In this document: positions 551 through 7,651 of the stretch, one piece after another
Numbering within the stretch: position 1 is the first letter of the stretch
Layout: the number at the start of each line of letters is the position of its first letter
DNA from: a virus
Length of the DNA: 7,651 nt
Virus genome (UHGV): UHGV-0363594
Strand: one strand, 5' to 3'
Notes under the pieces: generated by a model
Seen by the model: the letters and a program-made list of their open reading frames with translations, nothing else
What the model was told of the DNA's origin: nothing
Databases searched by the model: none
Program-made: the position numbers and the translations under genes

Positions 551-574
551 AAAAAAAAGCCGGATTTCTCCGGC
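551..574 (-). terminator. Rho-independent terminator of the capsid operon (minus strand)
   Basis: GC-rich hairpin GCCGGA-gaaa-TCCGGC (plus 559-574) followed on the minus strand by a run of 8 T (plus A-run 551-558), 7 bp after the stop of the 581..994 ORF. Confidence 0.75.
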
Positions 575-580
575 CTTGTC

Positions 581-994
581 TCAGATGGTTTTCAGTATGC
601 GATCGATGTCGCCGTCATCGCCCTGGTTTCTGCCATCGTATGCCATGCCAGCTGATACGGCTTGCGGGCTGTGCATGTCCATAAAGTTTTCAAAGGCTGC
701 GGTAAGCTCTGGTGCAACCTTTGGGCGCTCCTGCTCTATGGTCATGTTCAGGATTTCACGAGCATTATCGACGCTAATACATGGCACGTTTGCCATTGCA
801 CGTAACAGCGGCTGATAGTCTTTATGCTCATGAAGCGCCATAATCGCATCAGCGCGCGGCTTGTCCTGTTCTTCCAGTTTGTTGAGTTGATATACGGCCT
901 CGTAGGTTGATAAACCTCTGTCAGCCATTGCCCGCGCTTCTGCTTTAAATTTACTCGCCAGCGGTAGCGCCATGATGCTTTCATTCGTTGCCAT
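581..994 (-). CDS. Hypothetical protein (137 aa), last gene of the capsid operon; acidic C-terminus
   Basis: ORF with a G-rich Shine-Dalgarno (AGGGGAA, 5-nt spacer) immediately after the stop of the decoration-protein gene; followed by an intrinsic terminator. No family recognised by eye. Confidence 0.6.
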   Translation of the reverse strand: MATNESIMALPLASKFKAEARAMADRGLSTYEAVYQLNKLEEQDKPRADAIMALHEHKDYQPLLRAMANVPCISVDNAREILNMTIEQERPKVAPELTAAFENFMDMHSPQAVSAGMAYDGRNQGDDGDIDRILKTI

Positions 995-1006
995 CGTTTC
1001 CCCTGC

Positions 1007-1342
1007 TTATCGCGCCAGCGGCTGAACGGATACGCCAGAACCCGCAAAGGCGGCGCATTTTTTCGCGTCAGTGTCGGCGCTCTCAGGCCAGTTAACGGCG
1101 GCAATATTGAATATCCCCGTCTTGTAACACTGTGCTGATTTCTGCTTTGACGTGTCCACAGGATACGAAGTCAGATAAACAGCCTTGCCAGATTCCTGAC
1201 CATCCCACGGCTTAAACTCGCCATTGTCCGCCAGCATCAGCGGGGTAAATTCCTGAATAACGCCAGCATCAGCGGCAAAATGTACCAGCGTCGTGGCGAC
1301 CTGCTGACTGCCTGCAAATAACTCAATGTATGGAGTGTCCAT
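1007..1342 (-). CDS. Head decoration protein, phage lambda gpD-like (111 aa)
   Basis: Length and sequence resemble lambda gpD as I recall it: TPLMLADNGEFKPWDG vs TPLMLDTSSRKLVAWDG, and a C-terminal block CYKTGIF..VNWPE..D.D.KK.AAFAGSGVSV vs FYKSGTF..VLWPE..D..KKRTAFAGTAISIV. SD GGGGGA 5 nt before the ATG. Confidence 0.85.
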   Translation of the reverse strand: MDTPYIELFAGSQQVATTLVHFAADAGVIQEFTPLMLADNGEFKPWDGQESGKAVYLTSYPVDTSKQKSAQCYKTGIFNIAAVNWPESADTDAKKCAAFAGSGVSVQPLAR

Positions 1343-1353
1343 AGAATCCCCCG

Positions 1354-2409
1354 TTAAGCAATTTTGACAGTAACAAATTTGCGAATATCTGCCGGAACCG
1401 GCTGCGGTGCGCTGTGCGTCTGCACGTACTCAATCGCCGGATCTCCGTCCTCAATCCAGTTTTTCGGGTAGTACATGTTTTGCGTTGCCCCCGTTCTTAC
1501 TGCGTCCTGATCCATAATCGCACCATAGGCCACCAGCCCTTTATTGTTGGTGTTGCCCAGGACAAGCAAATCAGGCTCAAGGAAATATTTTTCTGTGCCG
1601 TCGCTGTCAGTGTATTTGCCGGAATAGACGATAAGGGCCAGATCACCAAGATAGCCTTTAAAGCTCACCACTTCGCCCAGGTTTTTACATGCCAGCTCTG
1701 CGGCGGATTCTGAACCACGGGAGAGATCGTACAGTTCACGGAATTTTTTAAAGCTGCGTAACATGCGCCATACATCAACGCCCATAATCATGACGTTTGC
1801 GGGGCAACCTGTCTGATCTGCGTATAGCTCGATGTCATAGATTGGATCGTGTGTTTCCTTATCTGCCTCTGACCACTTTTTGCCATGTCCCTGTCTGGCG
1901 ATATTTTTACTTGGGATCTTCCAGTCGATTTCATAGCGTTCTATGCCTTCGCCCTCAATGATGTTTTTTCCGGTCGTTATCGCATTCACCGCCAGCCATT
2001 CCACGCGCGCTTTAATGGCGTTTATCTGGCGGCGCATGTTGCCAGTAATCAGGCGCATACGGCGGTAGGTAGGGTCGTTAAGCTGTGCCGGATCTTCTCC
2101 AGCCATGCGCATTATTGTTTTTAATGGATCGATTTCGTGTTTTGGCTTCATGTAGCCAGGGCGAATAATGCTTGTTTCGTACCCTTTATCGCGCTGAACC
2201 TGGCTACCAACCATAGGCGAACAAAACGCCGACATAGTGACTTCTTCAATATCCAGGTTATCTAACATGATGTCCTGTGTGTTGAATGTCGCCACGTTCG
2301 GGAAAAACAGCGCGGTAAACAGCGGACTGAATTTAAATTCCGCAATATCCTCGCGATTCAGGTACGCAAAAAGCTGGTTAGTGTTAAGTGCTATTGCTTT
2401 TACTGTCAT
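1354..2409 (-). CDS. Major capsid protein, phage lambda gpE family (351 aa)
   Basis: Strong similarity along the whole length to lambda gpE as recalled (e.g. KFSPLFTALFF vs KFDPLFLRLFF; PGYMKPKHE vs PGYVKPKHE; EDPAQLNDPTYRRMR vs EDPQNLADPAYRRRR; YPKNWIEDGDPA vs YPKNWVTTGDPA). SD GGGGGTG upstream; the start overlaps the stop of the upstream small ORF. Confidence 0.9.
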   Translation of the reverse strand: MTVKAIALNTNQLFAYLNREDIAEFKFSPLFTALFFPNVATFNTQDIMLDNLDIEEVTMSAFCSPMVGSQVQRDKGYETSIIRPGYMKPKHEIDPLKTIMRMAGEDPAQLNDPTYRRMRLITGNMRRQINAIKARVEWLAVNAITTGKNIIEGEGIERYEIDWKIPSKNIARQGHGKKWSEADKETHDPIYDIELYADQTGCPANVMIMGVDVWRMLRSFKKFRELYDLSRGSESAAELACKNLGEVVSFKGYLGDLALIVYSGKYTDSDGTEKYFLEPDLLVLGNTNNKGLVAYGAIMDQDAVRTGATQNMYYPKNWIEDGDPAIEYVQTHSAPQPVPADIRKFVTVKIA

Positions 2410-2615
2410 TATTCACCCCCGTGAACCTGATTCATACCCAGCGCCGCGCGTAAATAGGCGCGTACCTGCCAGCCTGTTGACGGCTCAACCATCGCCAGCG
2501 GATCAAGTCCTGCCGCAATGCCTGCTTTTACGTTCTGCTGGTGGCGTTCCTTGAGCGCCTTCACGATGTCGGGGCTTATGTACACCGAAACACCGCCTTT
2601 TTTCTCTTCAGCCAT
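2409..2615 (-). CDS. Hypothetical small protein (68 aa), first gene of the capsid operon
   Basis: ORF begins 30-60 bp downstream of the promoter/palindrome; SD AAGAGGAA upstream; its stop overlaps the capsid gene start, suggesting translational coupling. Function unknown. Confidence 0.55.
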   Translation of the reverse strand: MAEEKKGGVSVYISPDIVKALKERHQQNVKAGIAAGLDPLAMVEPSTGWQVRAYLRAALGMNQVHGGE

Positions 2616-2642
2616 AGTAAGAAATTCCTCTTTGACTTAAAA

Positions 2643-2699
2643 AATCATAACTGGATGTTCATCCAGTTATGATTATAATCATGATTGCATTTTGTGCAA
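2643..2699 (-). promoter_or_regulatory. Candidate sigma70 promoter of the capsid operon with an overlapping 32-bp palindromic operator
   Basis: On the minus strand: -35 TTGCAC (plus 2694-2699), 16-nt spacer, -10 TATAAT (plus 2672-2677). The palindrome AATCATAACTGGAT-GTTC-ATCCAGTTATGATT (2643-2674, 14-bp perfect arms) spans the -10 and the predicted transcription start. A second small inverted repeat TTGCA-TTTTG-TGCAA (2686-2700) overlaps the -35. Confidence 0.5.
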
Positions 2700-2780
2700 T
2701 GATATTGAGTTGCGTTGCAAATTATGAAATGATTATCCCGATCATGTGTGTCAGTGCACCAAAAAAAACCTCATATGCAA

Positions 2781-2819
2781 AAGCCCGATAAGCCCCCTCT
2801 GACCTTATCGGGCTTTTTT
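2781..2819 (+). terminator. Intrinsic terminator-like hairpin with T-run, strongest on the plus strand (possibly bidirectional)
   Basis: Stem GCCCGATAAG (2783-2792) / CTTATCGGGC (2804-2813), 11-nt loop, followed by TTTTTT (2814-2819). Four A precede the stem, so a weak minus-strand terminator is also possible. No protein-coding gene on the plus strand ends upstream of it. Confidence 0.5.
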
Positions 2820-2994
2820 ATCTGCCTGCAAAGATGTCGAACAAAAATTAACCACAATCATCATCTTTTTTGCATCAAAATAATTAAAAACAATCACTTA
2901 CGCACATGATGATGATGACGATAAAATCAAAAAAATGCGCTTCTTTCCGCGCCTCCCGCCCCGTGTTCAGGCCCACCCCGCCAGGAGGACCCGT

Positions 2995-3016
2995 AAAAAA
3001 GCCGGATTGCTCCGGC
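2995..3016 (-). terminator. Rho-independent terminator after ssb (minus strand)
   Basis: Hairpin GCCGGA-gcaa-TCCGGC (plus 3001-3016) followed on the minus strand by 6 T (plus A-run 2995-3000), 17 bp downstream of the ssb stop. Nearly identical to the terminator at 551-574. Confidence 0.75.
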
Positions 3017-3032
3017 TTCTGTCACTCGTTGC

Positions 3033-3455
3033 TTAAAACGGTATGTTATCCCCGTACGGATCATCGTTACCCGCCTGTTGTTTTGCCCTGTTCAGTGCGT
3101 CAGTAGCCTGGCCCTGCTGGCCTTTTTTACCACCTGGTCGCGCCGTTCTGGCACTGATTACGCTGTCAGCGATAACCTGCCACCCCTGCCGCGTTTCTCC
3201 GTTCTGCCCAGTCCACTGGCTGATCTGCATGTTACCCGCCACGCTCAGGAGTTCACCCTTGCGGTGCCTTTCCAGTGCTTCGGCCTGTCTGCCAAATGCG
3301 ATGACCGATAGCCATAACGTCGCCTGCCCATCCTGCGCCTGACTACATGGCAACGATACCGCCATACGTGCCAGCGTCATTGGTGTGCCCTTGCTGGTCT
3401 GTTTTACCTGCGGGTCGTCCACCAGCCGCCCGTAAGCTGCTATCTGTGCTGTCAT
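3033..3455 (-). CDS. ssb: Single-stranded DNA-binding protein (SSB), 140 aa
   Basis: The N-terminal two-thirds has an OB-fold SSB pattern (GRLVDDPQV...; W..VIAFGRQAE.....KG). A Gly/Gln-rich linker is followed by an acidic tail ending DDPYGDNIPF, matching the canonical SSB C-terminus (...DDDIPF). Strong SD GGAGAGGTGG. Confidence 0.9.
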   Translation of the reverse strand: MTAQIAAYGRLVDDPQVKQTSKGTPMTLARMAVSLPCSQAQDGQATLWLSVIAFGRQAEALERHRKGELLSVAGNMQISQWTGQNGETRQGWQVIADSVISARTARPGGKKGQQGQATDALNRAKQQAGNDDPYGDNIPF

Positions 3456-3775: not shown

Positions 3776-4004
3776 CCTCCTCTACCTCTCTACCTAATCA
3801 TCTTTCATGTCAGTAATGGCGCGGCTTTCAGATGGGTAGAGGGCTTTCGTGGCCCTCTACCCATCCTCTACCCGCCCCTCACAAACGATCTTAATCATGG
3901 TAGAAGAGGTAGAGAGGTTTTATTAGCCTTCTACCTAGCCCTCTACCCACTTATCATGTTGAATAATATGCGTTTATTTCATTCAGGTAGATGGGGTAGA
4001 GGGC
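3776..4004. repeat. Iteron array, putative origin of replication: at least 10 copies of the core GGTAGAG / CTCTACC in both orientations, flanked by AT-rich stretches
   Basis: Copies at about 3779-3786, 3787-3794, 3834-3844, 3852-3862, 3864-3873, 3899-3909, 3908-3917, 3927-3936, 3938-3948, 3986-3994 and 3994-4004. Includes a perfect inverted pair GGGTAGAGGGC-tttcgtg-GCCCTCTACCC (3834-3862). AT-rich tracts at 3751-3765, 3955-3984 and 4005-4025. No plausible ORF. Lies directly 3' of the primase/helicase gene. Confidence 0.6.
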
Positions 4005-4016
4005 TTTTACAAAAAA

Positions 4017-5771
4017 TTATAAAAACGCGTCACAATCATCAGTTGTAATTGCGTTGGTCTGCGTTACTCCCTTAACTCTCCGCGTAATATATTCATGTCC
4101 GTAAACTTTTGCCGCTGGCTTCATGGCCTTGCTGAACTCAGCCACGTTTAGCGGTTTGCTCCTGCCTGCGTATGCCATAAACGCCAGATAGACGCGGTAA
4201 AGGCTGTTTCTGGTCGTGTACTTCACTGAATCGCCACCGCCGCCCATCATCAGGCCGCGTGCTTCCTCCAGAAAATTCAGGAACTGGCAAAACTCAATAA
4301 CCGGATCCGTCTGTTGCTTTATTGCCAGAGCTTCATCACCGTCGCGCTGTTCCAGTAATAAAGCCCGTGCCTTTTCAGGGTCGGCAAAATTAGCCAGCAA
4401 GCGACGGATAATTACGGGGATTTCAGCCGCGACCTTCTCCGGCAAATCCTTGTCTTTTTCGTCCTCCCTTACAATGTTGTCGAACCGGAAAATCACCCGA
4501 CGGCGTGACACACCTCCGGCCCGCTCGGTGAATATCATCGGGTTATTGTTGGTAGCCAGCACCACCGCCCTGATTACCGCCGTAAAACGCTTCTCATATT
4601 TCGGGTTTATTTCCACGGGGTCGCCGCCCGTGATTTTCTTGATGCCCGTTCCTTCGCCTGTATATTTCGGCTGGTCAGCCAGGACGATAAGACGACTCCC
4701 GACAACCTGCGCACGTCCACCAGCATCATCAAGTGAGGTCATTTCAGCGCTTACCGTGTTCTGTTTCCCTGCCAGAAGGCTGGCTATGTGCGTGAATGTA
4801 CTTTTACCGCTACCGCCCTCTCCGGTGGCCTCAATAAACATCTGCCAGTCGTACCGGTTCGCCATAATCATGTACAGCGCGGCACATATACGCATCATCT
4901 TGCGCGGGTCTTTTCCGGCTGCGTGCTCAAGCCATTTATGAAAGTTTGGCGCGTTGTCGCAGATATTCTCCCCTGGTGCTGGTGGCGTGTACTCAATGCC
5001 GTTGTGCGTGGTGATCCAGTTCTCCGGCGTGTGCGGGGAAAATTCCCCCGTTTTCAGGTCAAGCGCACCATTGGCGAACGGCAACAAATCGCCGGACGGC
5101 TCGCCCATTGGTTCGGCAATAACTTTTAACGCTTCCACGGCGTTATTGATTACGCGCTTGCTGAAAGTGGCCCTGTGCTCTGAATAGATCGCCACCATTT
5201 CGCGGCTAAGTTCCATTGTGCTGACCGGACACCATACCCCGCCGCGCCATACGTGAACGATTTCACTTTCAGGATGTACGCAAACGCCATCAAAGCGATC
5301 GGCAAGCAGCTGCGCGCGCTCACTGTCCGCCATCTGCGAAAGTTGCGCCTTTTGCTTTACCGGAAGCTCAATGACCAGACCATCAGAAAGATTCTGGCGC
5401 TCACGGGCCAGATATTCGCGCCAGTTCTGCACCTCCTGGCCGTGCATACCATCAGGATAAAAATTTGCATCCTGTACGCCTGCCGCCGCCAGCTTCTGAC
5501 CAATCGCCTTTATCATTACAGGCGCAAGATATCCGGCCCTGTATATGCGTGCTGATTTTCGGCCTTCCGGCACAATTTGCAGATTATCCAGTTCGGATAG
5601 CTGCTGCTCCCCAAGCCACACAGGAGGCTCATTATCTCCGGCCATACGCGCATCATGTTCCTGCCATTGTTTCGCGTGTGCCCAGGCATCACTACCCGCA
5701 AAAATAATGACTTCTGTTCCTTTGTGTTTTATGCCGCGTGACTGCTGTTTTACGTTCGGTGCCAGTTTCAT
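4017..5771 (-). CDS. DNA primase/helicase (584 aa), phage/plasmid P4-alpha / D5-like type with SF3 helicase domain
   Basis: Walker-A P-loop GEGGSGKST in the C-terminal half, with downstream hydrophobic strand and acidic motif (LIVLADQP) typical of D5/P4-type primase-helicases. The N-terminal segment TEVIIFAGSD may be TOPRIM-like (tentative). Start overlaps the stop of the upstream ORF (ATGA). Confidence 0.85.
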   Translation of the reverse strand: MKLAPNVKQQSRGIKHKGTEVIIFAGSDAWAHAKQWQEHDARMAGDNEPPVWLGEQQLSELDNLQIVPEGRKSARIYRAGYLAPVMIKAIGQKLAAAGVQDANFYPDGMHGQEVQNWREYLARERQNLSDGLVIELPVKQKAQLSQMADSERAQLLADRFDGVCVHPESEIVHVWRGGVWCPVSTMELSREMVAIYSEHRATFSKRVINNAVEALKVIAEPMGEPSGDLLPFANGALDLKTGEFSPHTPENWITTHNGIEYTPPAPGENICDNAPNFHKWLEHAAGKDPRKMMRICAALYMIMANRYDWQMFIEATGEGGSGKSTFTHIASLLAGKQNTVSAEMTSLDDAGGRAQVVGSRLIVLADQPKYTGEGTGIKKITGGDPVEINPKYEKRFTAVIRAVVLATNNNPMIFTERAGGVSRRRVIFRFDNIVREDEKDKDLPEKVAAEIPVIIRRLLANFADPEKARALLLEQRDGDEALAIKQQTDPVIEFCQFLNFLEEARGLMMGGGGDSVKYTTRNSLYRVYLAFMAYAGRSKPLNVAEFSKAMKPAAKVYGHEYITRRVKGVTQTNAITTDDCDAFL

Positions 5772-6529: not shown

Positions 6530-6743
6530 AACCCCCCCCATTTTCACAATCAGCAATAAGAATATTTTTAGCGTCATTCAGCGACCGCGTGGCGGTGTAT
6601 CTGATACATTCCAGGGCGAACTGTGTCCGGTCTTTCTGTTCTTCTCCCTGCGCAAGCTCTGCCGTGCATTCAATATCAATAAGCGCGTGCATCAGCGTAG
6701 TGAGTGCGGCGGCGGCTGCGTCCGGTGTGGTTTTATTGCACAT
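6522..6743 (-). CDS. Hypothetical protein (73 aa with the start chosen here; the ORF extends to 6773)
   Basis: The start at 6743 (MCNKTTPD...) is preceded by a strong SD AGGAGGT with a 5-nt spacer and overlaps the end of Icd-like gene A by 11 bp. Ala-rich N-terminus, several Cys. Confidence 0.5.
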   Translation of the reverse strand: MCNKTTPDAAAAALTTLMHALIDIECTAELAQGEEQKDRTQFALECIRYTATRSLNDAKNILIADCENGGGYA

Positions 6744-6906
6744 GGCACACCTCCTGACGAATACGGGCGACAAAAATCAGATGTGCGTGCGGCAGCTGGG
6801 CGCGGGCTTCGCGCTCAGTGGCAGCGGTAACGGTGTAAATATCAATGCTGCTGTGGTGGCACTGCATAAAGCGCCAGACAAAGTAAGGGCGTGCGGATAC
6901 AGCCAT
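6733..6906 (-). CDS. Small Icd-like protein, paralog A (57 aa from the internal start; the ORF extends to 7041)
   Basis: Shares FVWRF, TEREAR and F(V/A)ARIRQ motifs with the 7192..7389 ORF. The start at 6906 is preceded by GGGAGCC, similar to the RBS of paralog B. The motif pattern resembles host cell division inhibitor Icd-like proteins as I recall them (memory-based, unverified). Confidence 0.55.
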   Translation of the reverse strand: MAVSARPYFVWRFMQCHHSSIDIYTVTAATEREARAQLPHAHLIFVARIRQEVCHVQ

Positions 6907-6992
6907 GTGAAAGGCTCCCAGATGAATTTTAAGGAGTCTCGCTACTACGCTGTCAAACATGGTGGCGAGACGTAACAGGGTTGACAGACTGG

Positions 6993-7199
6993 TCATCTGG
7001 AAACCAGCGAGCACAAAGGCTCCCCCGTTACGCCCCGCCATAATGCGGGTATGGGTAGGTTTACGGACACAAAAAACCGCTTATCGGATGTGGGCGGCTG
7101 TCCGCCAGATGTATTCAGGCTGTCAAACCCGGTCGCCATGTGGGCGACGGGGGAAGCATACAGCCCCGTGATAATTTTTTGCAAGCGGTTTTTACGCAT
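6993..7199 (-). CDS. Hypothetical protein (68 aa with the start chosen here; the ORF extends to 7241)
   Basis: The start at 7199 (MRKNRLQ...) has an AGGGG SD-like element and overlaps Icd-like B by 8 bp. It occupies the same relative position as 6522..6743 in the duplicated unit but shows no obvious protein similarity to it. Confidence 0.4.
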   Translation of the reverse strand: MRKNRLQKIITGLYASPVAHMATGFDSLNTSGGQPPTSDKRFFVSVNLPIPALWRGVTGEPLCSLVSR

Positions 7200-7389
7200 G
7201 ATGTGACCCCTGGCGAATACGGGCGGCGAATACAGCAACACAACCGGACGGGCAACGGCTACGCGCTTCGCGTTCCGTCCAGGCGGTTACGTGGATGATT
7301 TGAGATTCTCCGGCACTCAGTGCCAGAAAACGCCACACAAAGGCCGTTTGTGTGTGTACAAGGTGTGGTATATGATTTACGGCAACCAT
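7192..7389 (-). CDS. Small Icd-like protein, paralog B (65 aa); first gene of the leftward early operon
   Basis: SD GGAG 5 nt upstream of the ATG. Motifs AFVWRF...TEREARSR...VFAARIRQG are paralogous to 6733..6906. Confidence 0.6.
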   Translation of the reverse strand: MVAVNHIPHLVHTQTAFVWRFLALSAGESQIIHVTAWTEREARSRCPSGCVAVFAARIRQGSHHA

Positions 7390-7417: not shown

Positions 7418-7452
7418 GAAGCCCCGTTACTGCTCCAACAGTGCGGGGCTTC
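7418..7452 (-). other. GC-rich stem-loop in the predicted 5' leader of the Icd-like operon
   Basis: 9-bp perfect stem GAAGCCCCG (7418-7426) / CGGGGCTTC (7444-7452) with a 17-nt loop. It is not followed by a U-run on the minus-strand transcript, so it is probably not a terminator. Confidence 0.4.
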
Positions 7453-7490
7453 GTCGTTTCAATTGCTGAATTGCATGTATCAGCACTTGT

Positions 7491-7544
7491 GGTATTCACA
7501 TTACATTTATGTGAATACCATTTCAAGTCTTTTTTGGTATTCAC
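7491..7544. promoter_or_regulatory. Operator-like perfect inverted repeat plus an extra half-site in the divergent promoter region
   Basis: GGTATTCACAT-tacattt-ATGTGAATACC (7491-7519) with a third half-site GGTATTCAC at 7536-7544. A candidate minus-strand promoter overlaps it: -35 TTGAAA (plus 7521-7526) and -10 TGTAAT (plus 7500-7505), 15-nt spacer. Confidence 0.5.
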
Positions 7545-7587
7545 TTTTGTATTACACTGCATCCCGTTATTAATGGGAGGTGCAAAC

Positions 7588-7651
7588 ATGTCCAGGAGTT
7601 CTGTTAACAATAAGTCACAGCAACTGAATGCCAGATTTCCACATGAAGTAG
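7588..7651 (+). CDS. 5' end of a plus-strand gene (partial, runs off the window), divergent from the Icd-like operon; possible regulator
   Basis: ATG at 7588 is preceded by a strong SD GGGAGGTG with a 6-nt spacer. The open frame MSRSSVNNKSQQLNARFPHEV continues to the window end. Its function cannot be assigned from 21 residues. Confidence 0.5.
   Translation, partial: MSRSSVNNKSQQLNARFPHEV

Follow-up and report, generated by a model that had tools for sequence, protein, structure and literature searches.

A palindrome at the capsid promoter of an Escherichia coli phage satellite contains a predicted operator for the host SOS repressor LexA

What does a long, perfect palindrome do at the point where the transcription of a satellite's capsid genes is predicted to start? 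The stretch of viral DNA analysed here (UHGV-0363594, 7,651 nt, referred to as the window) raises this question with a palindrome of 32 bp, for which the original prediction had proposed that it holds the capsid operon off until a specific signal arrives, possibly a protein of a helper phage. In our analysis, the palindrome quite likely has at its core an operator of the host's own SOS repressor LexA, placed on the promoter of the capsid cassette. As set out below, this reading can be developed from the position of the palindrome, from its inner 20 bp, and from what relatives of the satellite have kept and changed.

The satellite, its capsid cassette and the palindrome

Judged by its gene content, the window belongs to a phage-inducible chromosomal island (PICI) of E. 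coli, one with a cos site of the lambda/21 type (Table 1). A very close relative in E. coli JNEC-KY203 (L001), which is identical to the window over the 641 bases compared, has the full element of about 10.6 kb at a tRNA-Pro gene, with an integrase, a small HTH regulator, Icd-like genes, primase, SSB, capsid genes and cos that share one direction. Gram-negative PICIs are recognised by int, an alpA-type regulator, primase with a downstream ori, unidirectional genes, a cos or packaging module and a size of about 10-20 kb; L001 fits this layout, and the window has the D5-type primase, the iterons and the cos. The four genes of the capsid cassette form a compact and self-contained unit (2615 to 581) that is closed by the terminator at 577-556. 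The last gene product is weakly similar (E 1e-10) to the C-terminal part of a head maturation protease/scaffold family (phrog_53) and may be a Nu3-like scaffold, in which case the cassette would encode capsid, decoration and scaffold proteins. The small first gene is conserved together with the cassette in several genera, and in a sequence search of the three small ORFs against solved structures no match to the packaging-redirection protein Rpp was obtained. As many E. coli genomes match the window only over 2400-2819, the cassette looks like a module that was placed between SSB and cos; the hairpin at 2772-2824 is where the similarity to many E. coli genomes stops.

Table 1. Features of the window around the capsid promoter and in the rest of the satellite (positions in the window; strand given where assigned)
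Feature	Position	Strand	Basis or remark
Intrinsic-terminator-like hairpin and T-run ending the capsid operon	556-577	-	terminator scan
cos site, lambda/21-type	472-556		matches cos region of phage 21 and relatives
137-aa protein, last gene of the cassette	581-994	-	phrog_1999
Head decoration protein	1007-1342	-	lambda gpD family (PF02924)
Major capsid protein	1354-2409	-	lambda gpE family (PF03864)
68-aa protein, first gene of the operon	2409-2615	-	phrog_3255
Shine-Dalgarno GAGGA	2626-2630	-	read directly; 10 nt before the ATG at 2615
T6 tract after the palindrome, on the operon strand	2639-2644	-	with the hairpin gives a terminator-like look
Palindrome, 32 bp, 15-nt perfect arms and 2-nt centre	2643-2674		repeat finder, shuffles
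Predicted LexA (SOS) box, 20-mer, HI 6.81	2649-2668		AACTGGATGAACATCCAGTT on the operon strand
Predicted transcription start	2664-2666	-	from hexamer positions; about 7 nt past the -10
-10 hexamer TATAAT	2672-2677	-	6/6, 16 nt after the -35; TATAAT or TAAAAT in all related lineages
Dyad ATTGCA-N5-TGCAAT over -35 and spacer	2684-2700		conserved
-35-like hexamer TTGCAC	2694-2699	-	3/6 to TTGACA (TTG); TTGC kept in relatives
Second, weaker copy of the ATTGCA-N5-TGCAAT dyad	2714-2730		30 bp upstream
G+C-rich hairpin with T-runs on both sides	2772-2824		upstream edge of the capsid cassette
SSB	3033-3455	-	Pfam/PHROG
Iterons CTCTACC/GGTAGAG, origin-like	~3780-4010		downstream of the primase gene
D5-type primase	4017-5771	-	Pfam/PHROG

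Some further observations concern the rest of the element. A perfect inverted repeat of 14 nt (3831-3865) lies among the iterons, the "terminator plus cos-like" stretch has a degenerate second copy after the SSB gene (~2940-3019, repeat D16), and the complement of GGGCGGCGACCT is found at 505-520 in the cos region. In the early region, a C4 antisense RNA (RF01695; 6958-7045, minus strand, 72.6 bits against a gathering score of 45) and an a1/b1 target (RF03163; 7112-7161, minus strand, 46.8 bits) are contained in ORFs (6733-7241) whose counterparts in L001 are annotated as Icd-like, which points to an RNA immunity circuit of the P1/P4 style. That the element has more than one regulatory circuit, as the original prediction had supposed, is reasonable in view of this C4-type RNA and its target (6958-7161). 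The last 200 bases of the window (7452-7651), which are not joined to the rest of it in any complete E. coli genome searched, hold an inverted repeat with 12-nt arms (7490-7520) and, from 7588, an ORF on the plus strand that has a good ribosome-binding site, and may be a different regulatory module.

The palindrome itself is present as described originally, with arms that are slightly longer than had been stated: the repeat finder gives 15 nt instead of 14 for each arm (2643-2657 and 2660-2674), which contains the reading as 14+4+14. The view that such arms are too long for chance holds as well, since only about 6e-5 perfect inverted repeats with arms of at least 15 nt and a spacer of 0-8 are expected per 7651 bases, and the longest arm in 200 shuffles of the window was 13 nt. 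On the minus strand, TTGCAC is followed by 16 nt, TATAAT, CAT, the remaining palindrome, TTTT, GAGGA and the ATG of the 68-aa gene, and both hexamers and their spacer were thus located correctly (2699-2694 and 2677-2672). The description of this promoter as near-consensus applies to its perfect -10 but not to its -35, which matches at only three of six positions, nor to its spacer of 16 nt; as the -35 matches only TTG and the spacer has this length, the promoter is absent from a generic promoter scan. In a similar way, the palindrome does cover the predicted start, around which it lies mostly at about -9 to +23, but it shares just 3 bp (2672-2674) with the -10 that it had been said to overlap. 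What remains is the repressor-operator geometry that had been recognised from the outset, in which a dyad-symmetric site directly follows the conserved -10 and covers the point where the capsid operon is predicted to start.

The inner 20 bp as a predicted LexA box

LexA boxes of the E. coli or gammaproteobacterial type have the consensus TACTG(TA)5CAGTA (PMC6590174). The inner 20 bp of the palindrome (AACTGGATGAACATCCAGTT) have the CTG-N10-CAG core, with CTG at 2666-2664 and CAG at 2653-2651. The match was graded by the heterology index (HI), which is only a proxy for affinity, using a matrix solved from 141 published pairs of E. coli K-12 20-mers and HI values (PMC12527982, Table S1). The fit is exact and symmetric with zero residual, and the recovered matrix returns 4.31 for TACTGTATGAGCATACAGTA and 9.19 for CGCTGGATATCTATCCAGCA. 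The published table names no genes; we take TACTGTATGAGCATACAGTA to be the recA box and CGCTGGATATCTATCCAGCA the ruvAB box. The entries close to the 6.81 of the window box are presumably those of uvrB (6.11), lexA (6.40) and uvrA/ssb (6.98), so that, on these assumed gene names, the window box lies within the range of the uvrB, uvrA and ruvAB boxes. The published LexA-binding (low-HI) class of E. coli reaches about 13.6 and peaks at 7.34, and the window box thus falls inside the range of experimentally bound sites. At the composition of the window, 3.5e-4 boxes of this quality are expected by chance, and the five other CTG-N10-CAG matches in the window score from 18.7 to 25.2. Relative to the predicted start, the box extends from about -3 to +17, beginning 3 nt past the conserved TATAAT; in Salmonella SOS genes with LexA-dependent bistable expression, LexA boxes overlap the start where it is known (PMC8072944).

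Close relatives permit an estimate of which part of the palindrome carries information. In a set of 80 IMG/VR contigs that encode capsid proteins 90-98% identical to that of the window, the box is intact in 78 (HI 5.4-9.6), and the remaining two comprise one with a 1-nt insertion in the centre and one that gave no match. Variation within the 20-mer is limited to positions 1, 2, 9, 15 and 20 and to one inversion of the centre, and the six substitutions observed are found at tolerant positions or go toward the consensus, as two of them do. Their mean change in HI is 0.76, compared to 2.08 for all possible changes (P ~0.016). The arms as a whole are kept much less strictly, as positions 6-8 vary freely and perfect 14-nt arms are present in just 21 of the 78 relatives with an intact box, the palindrome being imperfect in the other 57. 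Judged by this pattern, the conserved and information-bearing part is the inner 20 bp and not the full palindrome. The carrier strain ATCC 25922 (NZ_CP158443.1, genes ABS743_RS08340-08355) has the box AGCTGGATGAACATCCAGTT.

Four close relatives deserve separate mention. The centre of the palindrome is inverted in L074 (GAAC to GTTC), both arms have changed in a matching way in L065 (GGA/TCC), which restores perfect arms, a match is seen at one of two changed positions in L048 (GAG/TTC), and a 1-nt insertion breaks the CTG-N10-CAG spacing in L063. These variants look like hairpin-templated mutation events, and the "compensatory" variants of L048 and L065 as well as the inverted centre of L074 would fit template switching at quasi-palindromes as well as they would fit selection.

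More distant modules were reached via capsid proteins that are 51-85% identical to that of the window. Three of these modules have LexA boxes of differing sequence at the same place: a Salmonella module (L084, capsid identity 67%) with GACTGGATGAAAATCCAGTA (HI 7.98), a lineage of unassigned host (L296, 68%) with CACTGTATATAAATTCAGTT (HI 7.69), and a Lelliottia module (L089, 58%) with CACTGTTTTTTCATACAGTT (HI 7.57). A gap of exactly 3 nt lies between TATAAT and the 20-mer in the window, in L084 and in L296, and although the window and L296 differ at 6 of the 20 positions, both remain good LexA sites by HI. Two E. coli types (85% and 63% capsid identity) and an Edwardsiella module share the promoter architecture with the window and have no box; in the two E. 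coli types, the centre of the palindrome is replaced (AATCATGACTG-ACTTTTCG-TTATGTTT). Neither the box nor this architecture was found upstream of the capsid genes of EcCICFT073-like elements, Serratia, Cedecea, Scandinavium and a second Salmonella type. As several sister lineages lack the box, LexA control would be optional for this cassette; it is met repeatedly, apparently under selection, but not throughout the cassette family. Scans of species-representative genomes with the capsid protein gave pattern matches and no confirmed relative, the promoter pattern ATGCAATNATGNTTAWAAT returned from such genomes only unrelated A+T-rich DNA among the matches listed, and IMG/VR scans with the Salmonella and Lelliottia capsid proteins led to the same E. 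coli lineage or to nothing.

How would such an operator work? The TTGCAC-16-TATAAT promoter on the minus strand would drive the four-gene cassette, and a LexA dimer on the box would block open-complex formation or promoter escape. Upon DNA damage, activated RecA would trigger LexA's self-cleavage, and the cassette would be de-repressed, without any need for a helper-phage protein or an element-specific repressor. The same SOS signal would induce lambdoid helper prophages, whose cos-type packaging the satellite would use; it is the cos site that makes lambdoid prophages the likely helpers. We infer LexA binding, the transcription start, repression and SOS inducibility at the palindrome from sequence. 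The outer arms and the inner sequence change among relatives while the LexA-defining positions are kept, and together with the canonical LexA/SOS box in the inner 20 bp this argues against the helper-phage protein that had been suggested as the signal. The LexA mechanism can do without the outer 6 bp of each arm, which probably represent in part promoter sequence (TATAATCAT) and in part a side effect of the way in which quasi-palindromes evolve.

Outside the window, L001 has at 18385-18404 a further and weaker LexA-like box, TACTGGTTTTCTGTACAGCT (HI 10.33), in the gap that separates the integrase gene from the next gene upstream of the alpA-like regulator. Four IMG/VR relatives have this box too, and the early operon of some elements might be affected by SOS as well.

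Alternatives to a LexA operator

Which other functions could be assigned to the palindrome? One could think of the whole 32 bp as the operator of a dedicated repressor, which would be encoded either by the element, for example by the 68-aa protein as an autoregulator, or by a helper phage. This would explain why the 15-nt arms exceed what a LexA box needs and why the outer AATCA/TGATT are common to three of the box-bearing lineages, and the AlphaFold2 model of the 68-aa protein, a short beta hairpin followed by two helices (strand-helix-helix, pLDDT 74.5), is indeed reminiscent of ribbon-helix-helix repressors. However, a protein that reads the entire palindrome is difficult to reconcile with the freely varying arm positions 6-8 and the imperfect palindromes of most close relatives, and distant lineages swap the inner sequence yet keep the positions of the LexA consensus. 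Moreover, the 68-aa protein has no Pfam match, no PDB sequence or profile match and no significant fold match as a ribbon-helix-helix repressor or other DNA binder, no DNA-binding domain is recognisable in the cassette, and there is only a single dyad. The half-site ATAACTGGAT has six matches in the window, two of which are the arms themselves, compared to 0.36 expected in total, and this speaks for a dedicated repressor. The search for other copies that the original prediction had proposed thus gave four half-sites with one mismatch, none of which has a dyad partner, and as operators these four were rejected: they are isolated and mostly coding, two spell Asn-Trp-Ile codons and two break the CTG. 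A palindrome-like site was also sought in 50,697 phage records and gave no match. Taken together, we consider a dedicated repressor very improbable.

It is also very improbable that the palindrome acts mainly as RNA of the minus strand, be it as a terminator or attenuator against read-through from the replication genes or as a 5'-terminal hairpin that stabilises the mRNA. The terminator scan lists the palindrome together with the six T that follow it on this strand, a feature that the original prediction does not mention, as a stem of 14 pairs with a 4-nt loop and a T-rich tail. As RNA, the hairpin has a folding energy of -19.1 kcal/mol (z = -5.9), E. coli relatives and Salmonella have retained the T-run, and the U.G intermediates and GC swaps at pair 6-27 resemble covariation. 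But the predicted start lies inside the 5' arm, so that the operon's own transcript would keep only a 6-bp stem of no unusual stability (z = -0.78), and covariation does not exceed that of shuffles (0.087 compared to 0.076, a value reached by 61 of 500 shuffles, with 17 distinct variants), pair 6-27 being unpaired in 9 of these 17. L296 and L089 keep the LexA box without a comparable hairpin and T-run such as the window's T6, and terminator-like hairpins already exist upstream at 2994-3019 and 2784-2816. As any LexA box is palindromic, a hairpin simply comes along with it. No Rfam family was found at the palindrome. A role in stopping read-through may nevertheless exist alongside LexA binding.

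That the palindrome has no function at all, being a chance product or a mutationally generated quasi-palindrome near a promoter, appears extremely unlikely. Template-switch "corrections" of quasi-palindromes can yield perfect arms without selection, and the variants L065 and L074, and in part L048, resemble such events. Chance alone would have to account for the ~6e-5 of the palindrome and the 3.5e-4 of so good a LexA box, and the box recurs with differing sequence in four lineages at the same promoter position.

Upstream of the -10, the two ATTGCA-N5-TGCAAT dyads of Table 1 are an observation of their own. The pair is found with the same spacing in Salmonella (L084), L296, two E. coli modules (L082 and L085) and Edwardsiella (L087), and also in lineages that have no LexA box, which suggests a second regulator of the capsid promoter that acts at these dyads. 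A sigma-54 reading of TTGCAC-N5-TGCA was rejected, as TG stands in place of the conserved GG at -24, and CRP, FNR and IHF consensus readings of the dyads were rejected by eye.

A LexA operator could in principle also be one half of a more elaborate, dual-use switch, by which the capsid cassette would become an autonomous unit gated by SOS. In such a constellation, the palindrome would serve as LexA operator on the DNA and, together with T6, as terminator on read-through RNA from the replication genes, the two dyads at about -27 and -57 would be occupied by a second regulator, and the capsid promoter would work as an AND gate, so that the logic of operon I of the staphylococcal islands (SaPIs) would have been reached independently. 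The terminator would insulate the cassette from AlpA- or helper-driven transcription of the satellite, and the strand-helix-helix protein of 68 aa would be one candidate for the regulator that binds the dyads. We regard this combination as rather unlikely, and the reading that we prefer is the simpler one of a host LexA operator.

Known systems and consequences for phage satellites

The E. coli SOS box that is nearest to the window box in sequence is CGCTGGATATCTATCCAGCA, with an HI of 9.19 (PMC12527982, Table S1), which we take to be the ruvAB operator. The two share the CTG-N10-CAG core, the half-sites CTGGAT...ATCCAG and the dyad symmetry. Like E. coli SOS boxes in general, the window box has an HI in the bound range and lies over the -10/start region of a promoter of the sigma-70 type. 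The differences are that it is found in a mobile satellite, where it would control capsid genes and not DNA-repair genes, and that the predicted box is located inside a longer palindrome of 32 bp that is followed by a T-run.

A functional parallel may be operon I of the SaPIs, which comprises packaging and capsid morphogenesis genes and is, according to the work of Ubeda et al. (2007) as cited in PMC5052747, repressed by LexA. Both cases would have a satellite capsid/packaging module under the host's SOS repressor, apart from the main induction switch. The hosts are unrelated, the LexA consensus in the SaPI hosts is a different one, and the genes differ, as operon I contains cpmAB, terS and pti, whereas the window has an E-like capsid protein, a D-like decoration protein and a scaffold-like protein. 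As only some Gram-negative PICI lineages carry the box, the likeness looks convergent rather than inherited, and we regard convergence with SaPI operon I as probable.

The element type is that of EcCICFT073, an E. coli PICI studied by experiment, which carries a capsid gene (c1499) and a decoration gene (c1500) of unknown role (PMC6092414, PMC10111431). The order int, alpA, primase, ori, capsid and decoration, cos is the same as there (PMC6092414, PMC6739421), and the lambdoid cos helpers used by EcCICFT073 would also serve the satellite of the window. The small first gene is absent from EcCICFT073-like loci (56% capsid identity), which contain a protein with an AlpA domain, which is likely Rpp, and a Nu1-like gene. 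No LexA box was found anywhere in the 8 kb of these loci, and this suggests why the EcCICFT073 model gave no hint of LexA control. Induction of alpA in EcCICFT073 depends on the helper and not on SOS (PMC6092414).

With the CI/Cro switches of lambdoid phages (OR/OL), the window site has in common that a dyad site overlaps a promoter and that it would be released upon RecA activation. In contrast to these switches, it is a single site without operator array and without adjacent repressor gene, and in sequence it agrees with LexA sites and not with the operator of any phage repressor. With Rho-independent terminators it shares a stem-loop that has a T-run behind it on the transcribed strand, but the stem is rich in A+T (only 4 of the 14 pairs are G-C), it overlaps the promoter and lies downstream of it, and hairpin and T-run are not conserved across the lineages that bear the box.

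In our literature searches, no published report of SOS control of a Gram-negative PICI capsid operon was found, nor any that links a LexA/SOS box to EcCICFT073, to PICIs or to the protein accessions, nor SOS transcriptomes of ATCC 25922. With the predicted LexA operator, a familiar kind of site would be found in a new place, the capsid cassette of a Gram-negative satellite. Capsid and decoration genes are the commonest late genes of Gram-negative PICIs, present in 21 of 29 reference elements (PMC10111431), and the LexA reading supplies a regulatory logic that can be tested for genes to which no role in PICIs has been assigned. Natural lineages with and without the box are available for comparison. 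The E. coli lineage concerned is widespread and includes ATCC 25922. It is predicted that the proteins of the capsid cassette are made in it whenever SOS fires, which includes exposure to quinolones or mitomycin, and that this happens with or without the helper's own inducing signal. If this is true, phage satellites of E. coli and of staphylococci would have arrived at a convergent regulatory design, in which the capsid cassette described here parallels operon I of the SaPIs.
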